IMG/VR virus record: IMGVR_UViG_2671180395_000013
From: a virus
Lineage: Duplodnaviria > Heunggongvirae > Uroviricota > Caudoviricetes
Reading direction: 5' to 3' (one strand)
Length of the DNA: 5,839 nucleotides
In this document: piece by piece, positions 1,294-5,824 of the stretch
How positions within the stretch are numbered: position 1 is the first letter of the stretch
How the letters are laid out: every line of letters starts with the position of its first letter
Made by a program: the position numbers and the translations under genes
Notes under the pieces: model-generated
What the model was told of the DNA's origin: nothing
Database searches by the model: none
What the model saw: the letters and a program-made list of their open reading frames with translations, nothing else

Positions 1294-1339
1294 GTTTTGA
1301 TAAAAAAACATTGACCTTAAATGTTCGTTTTTCTAAACT
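1294..1339 (+). promoter_or_regulatory. Sigma70-like promoter with operator-like site; candidate repressor-controlled promoter of the downstream operon (dicBp/PL analogue)
   Basis: -35 TTGACC (1311-1316), 17-bp spacer, -10 TAAACT (1334-1339). Directly upstream, gttttgataaaaaaac (1294-1309) matches the reverse complement of the OR site (gttttgattttaaaac) at 13/16. Inverted repeat aacatt/aatgtt brackets the -35. Confidence 0.4.
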
Positions 1340-1518
1340 TCATTCATTCCCTCACCCCGCCCCACAGAATGCAGGGCAATACTTCGAGTTACCAGGCAGT
1401 GGTCAGGGGTTAAGTAGCCAGCCCGAGGCGTAAGAACATGACGGCAGGGTTCAACTTTAATAACTATGCAGCAGGTTTTTGTTCCGCTACCCCGGCGTTA
1501 AGGGGAAATGAGGTCAAC

Positions 1519-1671
1519 ATGGATACGCTCAATCTTGGCAACAACGAATCTCTGGTATGTGGCGTGTTCCCCAACCAGGACGGTACGTTCACCGCGATGA
1601 CGTATACCAAAAGCAAAACGTTTAAAACTGAAGCTGGCGCGCGTCGCTGGTTAGCCAGAAACACTGACTGA
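1519..1671 (+). CDS. Small hypothetical protein, 50 aa (first gene of the operon; similar size and position to Qin ydfA)
   Basis: ATG 1519 preceded by GAGGT with 5-nt spacing. Translation MDTLNLGNNESLVCGVFPNQDGTFTAMTYTKSKTFKTEAGARRWLARNTD. The ORF track offers a longer in-frame start at ATG 1438 (77 aa, GAGG 9 nt upstream). Stop TGA overlaps the next ORF's ATG (TGATG at 1669-1673). Confidence 0.55.
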   Translation: MDTLNLGNNESLVCGVFPNQDGTFTAMTYTKSKTFKTEAGARRWLARNTD

Positions 1672-2321
1672 TGAGGTTGACGATGGAATTTAAAGATTTA
1701 CCTCCTTCAATCCAGGAGATTGCAGCACACACACTTCGTCATCGTCTGAACGAACTTGAATTGGAATCGGTAACGAAAAAAGACACTGATAATATGGCTC
1801 GTAATGTGCGCGATGCGTTTACCGGATTGTATTTCTGTGCGTCTATAAATAAACACGACTCAGAGAGTGTGGCAAATAAAATTGCAGAAACGACAGCGCA
1901 AAACATCAATACGAAACCAACGGAAGAAGAAATTGATCAGTTTGCTCATGATGCTGGTTTAAAAAACAAGAAAGAAAAATCGCCATATGCGGGGAACATG
2001 TTTGTTTATGACAATCTCATCAGAATTCGTGGCGAAATTCCGGCGGAATACCTGGCAAGAGTCCATCAGGCATTGCTTAAAAATTTGGAAACAGAATTAT
2101 TTGATGGCAACACTAACGGTTTCTTCATGGTATCAGGCCTTGAGAAAGACTGGGATGCAGAAAAACGCTGGAATGTTGCTACATGGTTATTCAGTAACAG
2201 AGCCGCTGCACTGGAAGCTTCGGCATGTATTTGCGGCCTGTTCTTAACAGACCACAAATATAATCTGGATGTGTACAGTTATATTTACGCTGAACACGGT
2301 CCACTCTGGATTGACTGGTAA
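1671..2321 (+). CDS. Hypothetical protein, 216 aa, no recognisable domain
   Basis: Long open frame with enterobacterial codon usage. ATG 1671 overlaps the upstream stop; an alternative ATG at 1683 has GAGG 5 nt upstream (MEFKDL...). No TM segment and no motif I can assign. Confidence 0.7.
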   Translation: MRLTMEFKDLPPSIQEIAAHTLRHRLNELELESVTKKDTDNMARNVRDAFTGLYFCASINKHDSESVANKIAETTAQNINTKPTEEEIDQFAHDAGLKNKKEKSPYAGNMFVYDNLIRIRGEIPAEYLARVHQALLKNLETELFDGNTNGFFMVSGLEKDWDAEKRWNVATWLFSNRAAALEASACICGLFLTDHKYNLDVYSYIYAEHGPLWIDW

Positions 2322-2531
2322 TTATAAGGAAACACCAGCAGGGCCGCGGCGACCAACAGAACGATTAAAATCAATAATGCCATTATAAAGGACATTATTT
2401 AATTTATCGTCGAATGCTGATTCTGTGAGCCTCAACTCTGAATGAGTTTTTAATAACCCTGATTGCCTGAGTTGATTTACCAGGCATTCAATCTGTTTTT
2501 CAATAAGCGGATTTCTTTTTTTGTTTGGCAT
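2322..2531 (-). CDS. Hypothetical small protein, 69 aa, antisense to the operon
   Basis: Minus-strand ATG at 2531 preceded by GGAGGA (complement of 2536-2541). ORF-track frame extends to 2543. Stop codon abuts the 216-aa gene's stop with zero gap. C-terminus (RSVGRRGPAGVSL) looks like read-through of GC-rich non-coding DNA. Confidence 0.3.
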   Translation of the reverse strand: MPNKKRNPLIEKQIECLVNQLRQSGLLKTHSELRLTESAFDDKLNNVLYNGIIDFNRSVGRRGPAGVSL

Positions 2532-2858
2532 TTTATCCTCCATTGAGGTTCTGGGTTAAAAATGGAGACCAACACGCTGTCACGTGTGGTCGTGCGCCGG
2601 ACACGGATAAGAATCCGGTACTGACAGTTTACTGAAAGGATATTTCCCTGAAAAGTCAGTGCATAACGCGAAAGCGTACGGCGAAGCTCTTTCCCTTAGA
2701 AGGCTTGTCGTTAGATTTCTTCGAACGTGCGCTTCCGGTTGTGGCACTCCGCGAAATGGCGCGGCGGTAAGTATGGCGGGGTTATTCCTTCCCCATTGAG
2801 GACACCGGGTTGTCAGGTTGACCATACGCTTAAGTGACAACCCCGCTGCAACGCCCTC

Positions 2859-2908
2859 NNNNNNNNNNNNNNNNNNNNNNNNNNNNNNNNNNNNNNNNNN
2901 NNNNNNNN
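2859..2908. other. Assembly gap: run of 50 N
   Basis: Fifty consecutive n characters. Identical 15-mers cgctgcaacgccctc flank it at 2844-2858 and 2909-2923. Confidence 0.95.
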
Positions 2909-2933
2909 CGCTGCAACGCCCTCTGTTATCAAT

Positions 2934-2986
2934 TTTCTGGTGACGTTTGGCGGTATCAGTTTTACTCCGTGGCTGCTCTGCCGCCC
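2934..2986 (+). ncRNA. dicF: DicF-like small regulatory RNA (53 nt)
   Basis: tttctggtgacgtttggcggtatcagttttactccgtggctgctctgccgccc matches the E. coli Qin DicF sRNA as I recall it, with about one substitution. Lies about 175 nt upstream of a dicB-like gene, as in K-12. Ends in a GC stem plus T-run. Confidence 0.75.
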
Positions 2987-2991
2987 TTTTT
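2949..2991 (+). terminator. Intrinsic terminator forming the 3' end of DicF
   Basis: Stem ggcgg(t) 2949-2954 pairs with gccgcc 2980-2985, with an internal helix (cag 2957-2959 / ctg 2973-2975), followed by TTTTT at 2987-2991. Must be leaky, since operon genes continue downstream. Confidence 0.6.
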
Positions 2992-3160
2992 AAAGTGAAT
3001 TTTGTGATGCGGTGAATGCGGCTAAGCGCACGCGGAACAGTTAAAACCAAAAACAGTGTTATGGGTGGATTCTCTGTATCCGGCGTTAATTGTTAACTGG
3101 TTAACGTCACCTGGAGGCACCAGGCACTGCATCACAAAATTCATTGTTGAGGACGCGATA

Positions 3161-3349
3161 ATGGAAACGTTATTACCAAACGTTAATACGTCTGAAGGTT
3201 GTTTTGATATTGGTGTTCTGCTCAGTAACCGGGAGTTTACTGAAGATGCCATTAACATGAGGAAATATGAGCCTTATCTGCTCAATGATAATTCCATACT
3301 TTCCCGAATTGCTCTTCTTGAACTTGGTATTTTCGGAGAACGTCAATGA
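3161..3349 (+). CDS. dicB: DicB-like cell-division inhibitor, 62 aa
   Basis: ATG 3161 with GAGGA 7 nt upstream. N-terminal half METLLPNVNTSEGCFDIGVLLSNREFTEDAIN closely matches recalled K-12 DicB (MKTLLPNVNTSEGCFEIGV...); same 62-aa length. The C-terminal half diverges. Confidence 0.8.
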   Translation: METLLPNVNTSEGCFDIGVLLSNREFTEDAINMRKYEPYLLNDNSILSRIALLELGIFGERQ

Positions 3350-3534
3350 CTTCAGCATTTGCACTGATGATGACGGTTTTTCTTATAACGGGTGAATCAC
3401 AGAATGTGATTACCGGAATTTATGCCAGTAAAGAATCCTGCCTCCAGGCAAGAGACGAGCAAAAAATTTCTGGTGAATGCCTCCCGGTAAAAAAAGTATC
3501 GCTGTACCTGAATAACGAAACACCGGCTGGATAA
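3346..3534 (+). CDS. ydfD: YdfD-like small membrane (lysis-associated) protein, 62 aa
   Basis: ATGA start/stop overlap with dicB-like gene; GGAGA 6 nt upstream. Hydrophobic N-terminus MTSAFALMMTVFLITG followed by a polar domain with two Cys. Size and position match Qin ydfD. Confidence 0.65.
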   Translation: MTSAFALMMTVFLITGESQNVITGIYASKESCLQARDEQKISGECLPVKKVSLYLNNETPAG

Positions 3535-3626
3535 CCCTCCAGCCATATTAACACCATACCAACGGATTAAAAATGCCAGCAATGGCAGGGATTTGTTCAC
3601 CCTTAAATCTGTAATGAGGTTTATCA

Positions 3627-4871
3627 ATGAGCACTGATAAAGAAGAATTTGCGCTATATTGCGAAGCAAAAAATGACAAAGTCAGAAAACGTCTGGGAAT
3701 TAAAGGTGGTTTTTACTGGACTACAGCAAAAAAATTATCTGTTGCCATCTCCCGCTGCATTACCGCAATGGATGACAACGATTATGATGAAGACGACTTT
3801 AAAAAACCCGTTCGCGTCCATTTACCCGTTGTGAATGACCTTCCACCTGAAGGCGTGTTTGATACCGAATTCTGCAACCGATACGAAAAAGGCGGGGAAG
3901 ATGGCATTACAATGGTATTTATCGCGCCCTCTCCCTCCGTGCAGGAGAAACCAGCCAGTACTGACAATACCAACGTCAACGGCGAAGACATGACGGAGAT
4001 TGAGGAGAATATGCTCCTGCCGGTTTCTGGTCAGGAGCTGCCCATTCGCTGGCTTGCGCAACACGGCAGCGAAAAACCAGTAACGCACGTTGCACGGGAA
4101 GAACTTCAGGCATTACATATAGCACGGGCGGAAGAACTGCCGGCTGTTACTGCCTTGGCCATTTCTCACAAAACAAAGCTGCTCGACCCGCTGGAGATTC
4201 GCGACCTTCACAAACTGGTACGCGACACTGACAAAGTTTTCCCTAATCCCGGTAATTCAGACCTGGGACTGATAACTGCTTTTTTCGAGGCATACCTGGA
4301 CGCTGACTACACTGATCGGGGTCTGCTGACAAAAGAGTGGATGAAAGGAAATCGTGTTTCGCGTATCACCCGTACGGCTTCCGGTGCAAATGCCGGTGGC
4401 GGGAACAAAACCGATCGCAATCCGAATTTAGTACACACCTTCGATACGCTGGATGTGGAGATTGCAGCAGCCACACTTCCGATGGATTTTAATATTTATG
4501 AAATTCCGGGCAGCGTTTATCGTCGCGCAAAAGAAATCGTCCTGAAAAGAGAAAGTCCGTTCAAAGAATGGTCCGCAGCACTTCGCGCAACCCCGGGTAT
4601 TCTGGACTATTCCCGCGCCGCTATTTTTGCACTTATCCGGAGCGCTCACCCTGAGTTTTATCACTACCCGGGACGCCTTCAGGGGTATATCAACGCCTAC
4701 TTAACGGAGACTGATCACGAGAACCCCAGCAAGGAAACTCTCACTGCTGCACGACATACACCGGAAAAAGATATCCTGGAAGAAGTTAACCGCGAACTGT
4801 CTGCTAAGCAGGAAACAGAAGAAGAAAATGATGAAGAAAAACCGCAACCATCTTGCGCAATGGCAGAATGA
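3627..4871 (+). CDS. Hypothetical protein, 414 aa, acidic C-terminal tail (position of Qin ydfE)
   Basis: ATG 3627 with GAGG 7 nt upstream. Long open frame with a Gly-rich loop (SGANAGGGNKT) and an acidic tail (ETEEENDEEKPQPS). No domain I can assign. 3' end overlaps the integrase remnant frame. Confidence 0.75.
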   Translation: MSTDKEEFALYCEAKNDKVRKRLGIKGGFYWTTAKKLSVAISRCITAMDDNDYDEDDFKKPVRVHLPVVNDLPPEGVFDTEFCNRYEKGGEDGITMVFIAPSPSVQEKPASTDNTNVNGEDMTEIEENMLLPVSGQELPIRWLAQHGSEKPVTHVAREELQALHIARAEELPAVTALAISHKTKLLDPLEIRDLHKLVRDTDKVFPNPGNSDLGLITAFFEAYLDADYTDRGLLTKEWMKGNRVSRITRTASGANAGGGNKTDRNPNLVHTFDTLDVEIAAATLPMDFNIYEIPGSVYRRAKEIVLKRESPFKEWSAALRATPGILDYSRAAIFALIRSAHPEFYHYPGRLQGYINAYLTETDHENPSKETLTAARHTPEKDILEEVNRELSAKQETEEENDEEKPQPSCAMAE

Positions 4872-5404
4872 TAATCAGAAGAAATCTGGCAAAAGACCGT
4901 TTTACAGTACCAAAAACACAGGCGGGAACCAATCGTGTGATTCACCTTATTAAGCCCGCAATCGACGCTCTCCGGAGTCAGATGGCACTAACGAGACTGA
5001 GCAAAGAGCATATCATCGATGTTCACCTCAGAGAATTCGGCAGAACAGAGAAACAAAAATGTACCTTTGTTTTTCAACCTGAAGTGTCAGCGAAAGTAAA
5101 AAATTATGGCGACCATTTTACCGTTGACTCAATAAGGCAGATGTGGGACGCAGCGGTAAAGCGTGCCGGAATCCGCCATCGCAAATCGTATCAGTCGAGA
5201 CACACTTATGCCTGCTGGTCGTTAACAGCAGGAGCTAACCCGGCATTCATTGCAAACCAGATGGGCCATGCAGATGCGCAAATGGTGTTTCAGGTGTACG
5301 GGAAATGGATGTCAGAAAATAATAATGCGCAGGTAACGCTGTTAAATACACAGTTAAGCGAGTTTGCCCCAACCATGCCCCATAACGAAGCGATGAAAAG
5401 TTAA
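4853..5404 (+). pseudogene. Tyrosine recombinase (phage integrase) C-terminal catalytic-domain remnant; N-terminal and core-binding domains absent
   Basis: Frame opens after TGA 4832-4834; first start-like codon is TTG 4853. Contains a beta-hairpin Lys region (TVPKTQAGTNRVIHL), box II-like SRHTYACW, GHAD, and candidate catalytic Tyr in VYGKWM. Only about 183 aa against roughly 350-400 for intact integrases. No upstream frame encodes the N-terminal domains. Confidence 0.7.
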
Positions 5405-5581
5405 TTTTTTATTTATCAATTAGTTAGATTGAATGACTCTTGAAATCCATAATTCATAGATGTTTTTTACTATTCTGTGGGTTTTTGGGTGTTTTCTAAG
5501 TTTTTTCAGATGGTTGTATTTTTTCTAAAAATCCCTAATCTCGATTTTGCTGTTTATTTGAGGCCTTTTTATGTCCCATAT

Positions 5582-5824
5582 ATGCCCCACAGATACCCCG
5601 CAGCCAAAATCAACAAAATGCCAAAAGGTTCTGTTCCTGCCCTGCAACAAGAAATGCTGCGACGTGTCAGTAAACGTTATGACGATGTAGAAGTGATCAT
5701 CAAATCCACCAGCAACGATGGCCTTTCAGTTACTCGCACCGCCGATAAAGATTCTGCAAAAACTTTTGTTCAGGAGACGCTGAAAGATACCTGGGAGTCT
5801 GCTGACGAGTGGTTTGTTCGCTAA
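5582..5824 (+). CDS. Hypothetical small protein, about 80 aa
   Basis: Open frame 5477..5824 in the ORF track starts at GTG, but the first 35 codons are Phe-rich translation of T-rich DNA. First ATG in frame is 5582 (alternative 5618); neither has a clear Shine-Dalgarno. The C-terminal 70 aa look like real protein (charged, mixed composition). Confidence 0.4.

Follow-up and report, generated by a model that had tools for sequence, protein, structure and literature searches.

The window, the whole stretch of 5,839 nucleotides analysed here, is 100% identical to Escherichia coli O157:H7 EDL933 and Sakai and constitutes the left end of the lambdoid prophage Sp11, adjoining the tandem prophage Sp12, while homology to the Qin prophage of E. 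coli K-12 stops at position 5456, just beyond the annotated end of Qin. The early region is Qin-like, with a Cro-like gene on the − strand and a cI-like repressor (HTH and S24), and it contains an early-left operon of the dicBF type. In K-12, the dicBF transcript is ydfABC-dicF-dicB-ydfDE and arises from the DicA-repressed promoter dicBp (bioRxiv 10.1101/2023.04.14.536235). The final intact reading frame of the operon in the window is an ORF of 414 codons, hereafter recE', and the ORF that comes next, hereafter int', is of the tyrosine-integrase type. The features of the locus are the following.

1311-3534, + strand: early-left (dicBF-type) operon upstream of recE', from Pfam, Rfam and PGAP features
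1311-1339, + strand: candidate promoter, consensus match only
1519-1671, + strand: DUF1391 ydfA-like gene (Pfam)
1671/1683-2321, + strand: ORF of 212-216 aa, function unassigned, operon member
2935-2986, + strand: dicF sRNA (Rfam DicF, 75 bits)
3161-3349, + strand: dicB, operon member
3346-3534, + strand: DUF1482 ydfD-like gene, operon member
3616-3619, + strand: Shine-Dalgarno GAGG, 7 nt 5' of the ATG, read from the sequence
3627-4871, + strand: recE' ORF, ATG to TGA, 414 codons (Sakai ECs_2216)
3627-3926, + strand: predicted small alpha/beta domain, codons 1-100, pLDDT mostly 80-96
3963-4817, + strand: predicted mainly helical domain, codons 113-397 (AlphaFold2)
4383-4412, + strand: Gly-rich loop GANAGGGNKT, aa 253-262, motif conserved in the family
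4818-4868, + strand: acidic tail, predicted to be disordered, aa 398-414, pLDDT <50
4859-4867, no strand: deletion junction from three-way base alignment, with recE-type identity up to 4867 and integrase-type identity from 4867/4868
4868-5404, + strand: int', 5'-truncated tyrosine-integrase pseudogene of the IntQ type, last ~179 of ~432 codons (Sakai ECs_2217)
4869-4871, + strand: TGA stop of recE', integrase-derived bases, out of frame
5405-5442, no strand: end of Sp11 and boundary with Sp12, placed at ~5442 (8043/8044 in the Sakai feature table, locus L001)

Two ORFs of the early region, between the DUF1391 gene and dicF, carry no assigned function. A consensus scan for promoters and terminators returned 7 promoter-like sites, against 8.6 expected from shuffled sequences, and hence no enrichment. 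The record itself is draft-like: ~720 bp upstream of recE' it has a gap of 50 N, with a copy of one 15-mer on either side.

As stated in the preliminary description, recE' is the largest ORF of the window (414 aa, the next in size in the ORF listing having 216 and 212 aa), and the chance of so many open codons is ~(61/64)^414, roughly 2e-9 per start. Its ATG is colinear with the starts of the full-length genes in the Escherichia phage vB_EcoS-640R1 (locus L002) and in E. coli O26 RM10386 (locus L006), and position 3627 is thus the native translation start of the exonuclease gene. The two ORFs are already known as a pseudogene pair, annotated in both reference O157:H7 genomes. In the Sakai record, ECs_2216, a pseudogene 'exonuclease', occupies 3627-4871 and ECs_2217, a pseudogene 'integrase', is the next ORF, and RefSeq PGAP describes recE' as 'RecE family exodeoxyribonuclease, incomplete, missing C-terminus' and int', which it draws at 4853-5404, as 'tyrosine-type recombinase/integrase, incomplete, missing N-terminus'.

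Family membership of the 414-codon ORF

The ORF had been regarded preliminarily as having no recognisable domain, a view overturned by HMM searches, which place it in a characterised family, that of RecE/exodeoxyribonuclease VIII. Pfam PF06630 (Exonuc_VIII) matches aa 57-189 with an E-value of 1.6e-34 (120 bits, for a cut-off of 25), PHROG 607 ('exonuclease') matches at 1e-194, pairing aa 1-399 of the ORF with positions 1-402 of the 883 in the profile, and NCBIfam NF007259 (exodeoxyribonuclease VIII) is covered over positions 1-409 of 877 with 619.6 bits. The equivalog cut-off of NF007259 is 1269 bits over its 877 positions, and the ORF scores under this full-length threshold because half of the protein is gone; recE' thus reads as a fragment of a RecE-family member and not as a functional equivalog. 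A large word-indexed homologue search, which confirmed the family, returned near-identical E. coli entries only, many of them partial sequences at contig ends. When the ORF was compared by sequence with solved structures, only a chance match came up, to an exopolyphosphatase (E = 0.2), and it was discarded.

No Pfam match to a C-terminal nuclease domain, either PD-(D/E)XK (DUF3799) or Rv2179c-like DEDD, was obtained in the ORF. The catalytic domain lies past residue 600 in full-length relatives, namely as an Rv2179c-like DEDD 3'-5' exonuclease domain at residues 632-803 of the vB_EcoS-640R1 protein and as a PD-(D/E)XK (DUF3799) domain at residues 614-849 of Rac RecE, and, therefore, the ORF keeps only the part without known activity. 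A 5'-3' dsDNA exonuclease activity would not be expected of its product, since the catalytic domain is missing, and any product of recE' would probably be devoid of nuclease activity. Pfam and PHROG searches found no recT in the window; the intact loci of vB_EcoS-640R1 and O26 RM10386, where xis is directly next to the exonuclease gene, lack recT as well, and Rac has it.

The 813-aa ExoVIII protein of vB_EcoS-640R1 shows 92.7% identity to residues 1-413 of the ORF. Rac RecE (866 aa), which is matched by PF06630 and NF007259 as the ORF is, shows 57% identity in BLASTP (ORF 58-413 against RecE 49-396, E = 1e-128), and both share the GANAGGGN-TDR loop and an acidic EEKPQPS stretch. However, their first ~57 residues differ, the ORF has no counterpart of the PD-(D/E)XK domain, and its nearest full-length relatives bear a DEDD domain instead of the PD-(D/E)XK domain of Rac RecE. 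The Gly-rich loop GANAGGGNKT had been said not to fit a Walker A motif, and this observation holds, as the pattern GxxxxGK[ST] has zero occurrences in the whole 414-aa protein. Its reading as the loop of a P-loop NTPase was rejected, since N stands where Walker A requires G. The loop follows the consensus R-T-x-S-G-[AT]-N-A-G-G-G-x-x-T-D-R, with R264 found in 34 and A256 in 30 of 40 diverse relatives, and it is also present in Rac RecE, where the BLASTP alignment gives it as GANAGGGNLTDR.

The C-terminus is indeed strongly acidic, as noticed earlier, with 11 D/E against 3 K/R in the final 30 aa. The tail EEENDEEKPQPSCAMA runs on into ...DEQATAETVEPD... within the 820-aa protein of O26 RM10386 and pairs with DDEEKPQPSGTTA of Rac RecE in the alignment. 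By these alignments and the predicted disorder, the tail is where the native interdomain linker starts, and not a functional C-terminus.

Parental genes and the deletion junction

An intact exonuclease of 820 aa, WP_000102117.1, is encoded in E. coli O26 RM10386 at L006 1178-3640, and its residues 1-414 are those of the ORF bar two differences: the ORF has one Glu fewer in an EEEE run, and its last residue changes from D to E because it is made by the junction. Window positions 2909-4867 are 99.8% identical in nucleotides to the O26 locus (L006 460-2421), and positions 4859-5589 are 95.5% identical to the 3' part of the O26 integrase gene. The order of genes in O26 RM10386 is DicB, DUF1482, the 820-aa exonuclease, xis and an integrase of the IntQ type interrupted by IS600; the first two encode proteins that have identical counterparts in the EDL933 annotation. 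In vB_EcoS-640R1, the 813-aa exonuclease is followed by xis and then by a 372-aa Int. Both loci have dicB and a DUF1482 gene upstream, like the window, and the order exonuclease-xis-int is seen intact in L002, L006 and a further related locus, L007. Whereas the O26 and phage proteins add the linker, a Cys-rich CxxC...CxxC stretch and the Rv2179c-like DEDD domain, the window copy ends at codon 414.

At the join, the exonuclease parent reads ...GCAATGGCAGA up to the breakpoint and TGAACAGG after it, the integrase parent reads ...AAAAATGGAACA and then ATGATAATCAG, and the window has GCAATGGCAGAATGATAATCAG. The two parents show an imperfect microhomology across 4859-4871 (AATGG.A ... ATGA), of which ~5 bases are contiguous, a pattern commonly seen with illegitimate recombination. 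With its last codons (4859-4871) the ORF runs, in another reading frame, over the first bases of integrase homology, and both this overlap and the loss of the 5' region of the integrase at the junction, which the preliminary description had suggested, are borne out by base alignment to the two parents. At the stop, the recE parent reads GCA GAT GAA and the window GCA GAA TGA; the ORF has 414 codons because the exonuclease frame meets this out-of-frame TGA one codon past the junction. The ORF had been called intact, but it comprises only the N-terminal 50% of the gene and is 3'-truncated by the same deletion.

Once the IS600 of the O26 strain (L006 4337-5600) is subtracted, the deletion amounts to ~2.32 kb (~2324 bp) of IS-free sequence and takes exonuclease codons 415-820 with the nuclease domain, the entire xis gene and ~253 of the 432 integrase codons. 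With a junction-spanning query, the join was found in 225 of 5426 complete E. coli genomes, in all of them at an identity of at least 99%. Matches were obtained in 2942 genomes, and the other ~2700 cover one side only and break at window positions 4859-4871 (query 120-132); these one-sided matches independently confirm the breakpoint. The 225 junction-bearing copies, being at least 99% identical, are too alike for sequence evolution to reveal decay. The full-length gene (at least 80% of 2463 nt covered) occurs in ~1275 of the 5426 genomes and it is the truncated form that is found in 225, so that the idea of a rare intact copy had to be abandoned.

On the other side of the join, int' is 90.8% identical in nucleotides to K-12 intQ and aligns to residues ~216-398 of K-12 IntQ, and Pfam PF00589 matches it over profile positions 52-165 of 172 only. 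The box-I Arg motif TG[VI]RPGE lies 5' of the join in both parents and is missing from int', which does not hold a complete tyrosine recombinase catalytic domain (R...K...HxxR...[H/W]...Y). Moreover, profile searches found no arm-binding or SAM-like domains in int', unlike in K-12 IntQ and the Int of vB_EcoS-640R1. The lost part of the integrase, ~59% of the gene, includes the arm-binding and core-binding regions and the first catalytic Arg, whose box-I motif is 17 codons 5' of the join.

With a probability of about 0.93, recE' is a dead remnant, fused to int' by a deletion of ~2.3 kb, and represents the 5' half of an exonuclease gene of the RecE family from a lambdoid prophage. The ancestral early-left operon would have run dicF - dicB - ydfD-like gene - exonuclease (820 aa) - xis - int, and the ancestral exonuclease would have had an N-terminal 'Exonuc_VIII' module, connected by a disordered acidic linker to a nuclease domain at the C-terminus, which is of the DEDD 3'-5' type in the closest relatives. 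One deletion of ~2.3 kb would then have brought exonuclease codon 414 next to integrase codon ~254, most likely through illegitimate recombination at the short imperfect microhomology. A pseudogene created by another route, either IS-mediated adjacent deletion with subsequent loss of the IS or aberrant Int/Xis recombination, seems unlikely. The same segment is hit by insertion sequences in relatives (IS600 in the int gene of L006, an IS3-family element in the recE gene of L007 and IS2 in K-12 ydfE/intQ), and a microhomology of merely ~5 contiguous bases could also speak for such a route. Nevertheless, no IS sequence or IS end is left at the junction, where recE-type and int-type sequences are cleanly joined with a shared AATGG.A, and the right-hand endpoint lies ~400 bp from the IS600 site of L006.

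The retained N-terminal module

An AlphaFold2 model of the ORF, built on 40 diverse relatives, reached a mean pLDDT of 83.5 and a pTM of 0.53. The predicted elements of codons 1-100 are E6-14, H17-23, E27-34 and H37-50, and a Foldseek search with the model of the whole ORF against PDB and BFVD gave no match at E <= 0.001. According to a review (PMC11611040), the activity of RecE resides in its C-terminal PD-(D/E)XK domain (residues 564-866) the function of the N-terminal domain is unknown, and full-length RecE is better than the nuclease domain alone in linear-linear recombination.

Several features count against viewing recE' as dead, namely its native start and ribosome-binding site, the open frame, the functional-looking dicF and dicB upstream and the confidently predicted fold. 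The start signals, the open frame and the predicted fold indicate, therefore, that a stable N-terminal fragment could be made. By analogy with K-12, a putative read-through expression of recE' upon derepression is plausible, and its expression, if any, would come from the repressor-controlled early-left promoter.

An exhaustive HMMER search over 1.84 billion cluster representatives recovered 222 related clusters only. All 39 diverse relatives selected from the family run 83-625 residues past the module, for a total length of 491-1089 aa, and no natural stand-alone module was found among the relatives spanning the whole module. Among 40 diverse members, the effector domains were PD-(D/E)XK in 12, DEDD in 7 and RecT in 2. 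Forms of ~340 aa (P0129, P0153 and P0157; PHROG 6528) were considered as stand-alone candidates and rejected: P0129 and P0157 have divergent, frameshift-like tails, and P0153 ends inside the conserved region. The phage matches of P0129 fall under long ExoVIII genes. Since the relatives all extend past the module and the short forms are unconvincing, the module seems always to accompany an effector domain.

It is very improbable that the truncated protein is expressed and performs a nuclease-independent role, either by binding a partner or DNA ends or by modulating, perhaps as a dominant negative, the full-length ExoVIII-type proteins encoded by sister prophages, for instance Sp10. Such a role would be in line with the native Shine-Dalgarno sequence and ATG, the open frame and the two-domain fold that is confidently predicted. 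It would also agree with the better performance of full-length RecE in linear-linear recombination (PMC11611040), with the up to 6-7 paralogous places that the ORF has in O157 genomes and with the retention of the module across relatives with different nuclease domains, which suggests a role of its own. However, complete-module relatives add 83-625 residues and none stands alone, the short cluster representatives appear to be frameshifted, truncated or cut, the ORF ends by accident, at a stop read out of frame where the deletion joined two genes, and both Sakai and PGAP call it a pseudogene. A residual function for the 414-aa fragment is, in sum, unsupported. Very little credence can likewise be given to the proposal that the module is an autonomous accessory or targeting unit with interchangeable effectors and that the Sp11 fragment, whose start signals persist within the inducible dicF-dicB operon, is made in O157:H7 and acts without a nuclease; if true, it could, for instance, compete with the full-length paralogues of sister prophages over DNA ends or a shared partner.

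The K-12 counterpart and consequences for prophage Sp11

At the corresponding position of K-12 Qin, after dicB-ydfD, the arrangement is ydfE' - IS2E - insD7' - intQ'. In ydfE' as in recE', what is left is the 5' part of a large exonuclease gene, and a damaged integrase of the IntQ type comes next. The preliminary description had taken ydfE as the K-12 counterpart of the ORF, which is right as to the position in the operon and as to the K-12 copy being cut by an IS2 remnant, but not as to homology: the best BLASTP match between the ORF and K-12 YdfE has E = 2.1, and blastn found no match of the window to the ydfE coding region. YdfE corresponds to the first ~257 of the 823 positions of PHROG 2082 (E = 5.6e-195), a different mosaic exonuclease family, whose profile is matched further along (245-378 and 440-822) by the ORF and its O26 parent. 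From these comparisons, YdfE is a positional analogue, truncated as well, and not the same sequence. Moreover, the damage differs, since in K-12 an IS2 insertion or rearrangement leaves most of intQ, whereas in Sp11 a clean deletion has taken xis and ~253 N-terminal integrase codons.

That the ORF is an intact gene, a rare uninterrupted version of ydfE from a new family without domains, is accordingly extremely improbable. It shares its operon position with ydfE and has no solved-structure relative by sequence or fold, but the RecE/ExoVIII profiles match it strongly, over the first half of each profile only, the N-terminal half of an 820-aa protein is identical to it, and YdfE, which belongs to PHROG 2082, is dissimilar to it. 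An assembly or sequencing artefact fusing unrelated pieces, for which the draft-like record and its 50-N gap with the duplicated 15-mer could be invoked, has a negligible probability, as the gap is ~720 bp upstream of the ORF and >200 genomes finished independently of each other, Sakai and EDL933 among them, have the ORF and the junction with 100% identity, so that the fusion artefact raised earlier as a caveat does not apply.

The reading of recE' as a deletion remnant agrees with what has been published on Sp11. The defective state of this prophage is already known from Asadulghani et al. (2009; PMC2669165), whose Sp11 is the same locus, 100% identical. In the sections of that study that concern these prophages, Int is reported to be disrupted in Sp3, Sp11 and Sp12, and in Sp11 the excisionase is absent and the ExoVIII-type recombination function is disrupted. 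ExoVIII-type recombination genes are listed there for seven Sakai prophages including Sp11 and are intact only in Sp10. Sp11 was predicted to be non-excisable, and in the experiments it showed no excision, replication or packaging (PMC2669165). Those sections deal with each prophage as a unit; the present analysis adds the junction at base resolution, its origin in one deletion and the parental arrangement seen in O26. A single deletion would explain at once the missing xis of Sp11, its dead integrase and ExoVIII-type exonuclease, and its failure to excise, and the deletion probably locks Sp11 in the chromosome.

The main practical effect of the remnant may be to offer a homology patch at which it can recombine with its exonuclease paralogues in other O157 prophages. 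For ECs2216 ('putative exonuclease'), six clustered, recombination-derived SNPs that separate two isolates of a single patient have been reported (PMC7645076), which shows that prophage-prophage recombination involves the remnant. Recombination at such patches can confound the SNP-based typing of O157:H7, as with this ECs2216 cluster.

Coupling of the RecE-family module to different effector domains

The RecE-family N-terminal module is coupled to differing effector domains across phages, as in phage vB_EcoS-640R1 (L002 5001-7442), the O26 RM10386 prophage (L006 1178-3640), the K-12 Rac recE locus (L004 5787-8387), and an alignment of diverse module members (A1). A PD-(D/E)XK 5'-3' nuclease, as in Rac RecE, is carried by 12 of the 40 diverse members, an Rv2179c-like DEDD 3'-5' exonuclease, which is the type of the closest relatives of the window ORF, by seven, and a RecT domain by two. 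In vB_EcoS-640R1 and the O26 prophage, xis comes immediately downstream of the DEDD-type exonuclease gene, and recT is absent. The proteins of this type are therefore probably not RecET-type recombinases, the name "RecE family" notwithstanding. At approximately residues 545-565 of the O26 protein, the linker is followed by a Cys-rich stretch (CTACGQTGGGNCPDCG) that resembles a zinc ribbon and precedes the nuclease domain; this stretch is also found in the vB_EcoS-640R1 protein and belongs to the half that is deleted from the window copy.

A Pfam search with K-12 YdfE (L003, the Qin locus, 10079-10999) returned no domain. Residues 1-257 of YdfE match positions 1-257 of PHROG 2082, an "exonuclease" family of 823 positions, and the C-terminal part of the same profile matches the 820-aa O26 protein. 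Together, both matches indicate that the exonuclease genes at this dicBF-type operon position are mosaic and that their N-terminal ~250 aa come in two or more unrelated variants.

Repressor and early-left genes

The following features were located in the window:

588/627-1226, + strand, cI-like repressor frame of 212 open codons with HTH and S24 peptidase domains
1671-2321, + strand, 216-aa ORF conserved in prophages (PHROG 2151, 1.9e-147)
2322-2543, - strand, convergent 73-aa ORF conserved in prophages (PHROG 4274, 1.4e-51)
2935-2986, + strand, complete gene for the DicF sRNA (Rfam RF00039, 75 bits; gathering score 48)
2969-2984, terminator-like hairpin following DicF
3161-3349, dicB, downstream of dicF
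3346-3534, DUF1482 ydfD-like gene, downstream of dicF

The Sp11 repressor is listed as disrupted by Asadulghani et al. 2009 (PMC2669165), and the Sakai and PGAP annotations include only the final 113 codons. The window frame is colinear with the 199-aa cI in the vB_EcoS-640R1 record, with just three substitutions, and a wrongly annotated start may be the simple cause of the short annotation.

Although the prophage is defective, its cassette for inhibiting cell division appears to be intact. Just 5' of dicF, a run of 50 N (2859-2908) is flanked on either side by the 15-mer CGCTGCAACGCCCTC (2844-2858 and 2909-2923). Since this 15-mer is single-copy at the corresponding site in EDL933, Sakai, and K-12, where no bases are absent, the comparison indicates that the N-run and one 15-mer copy are a scaffold-gap artefact of the draft assembly.

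The 216-aa and 73-aa ORFs both lie within the early-left operon region, the latter on the strand opposite to the operon, and Pfam searches with them returned no match.

Insertion sequences

In Sakai, an IS629/IS1203 copy (L001 8326-9635) lies within the 3' end of the Sp12 DinI-like gene; the window and EDL933 are without it, and the DinI-like ORF (5582-5824) is uninterrupted. The insertion point corresponds to window 5722-5725, with a 4-base overlap there.

Three relatives carry insertions in the exonuclease-xis-int segment:

L006 4337-5600, IS600 in the O26 int
L007 6003-7216, element of the IS3 family in the exonuclease gene of PK8241
L003 10844-11549, IS2 in K-12

The presence of a different element in each of them suggests that prophages are often inactivated in this segment.
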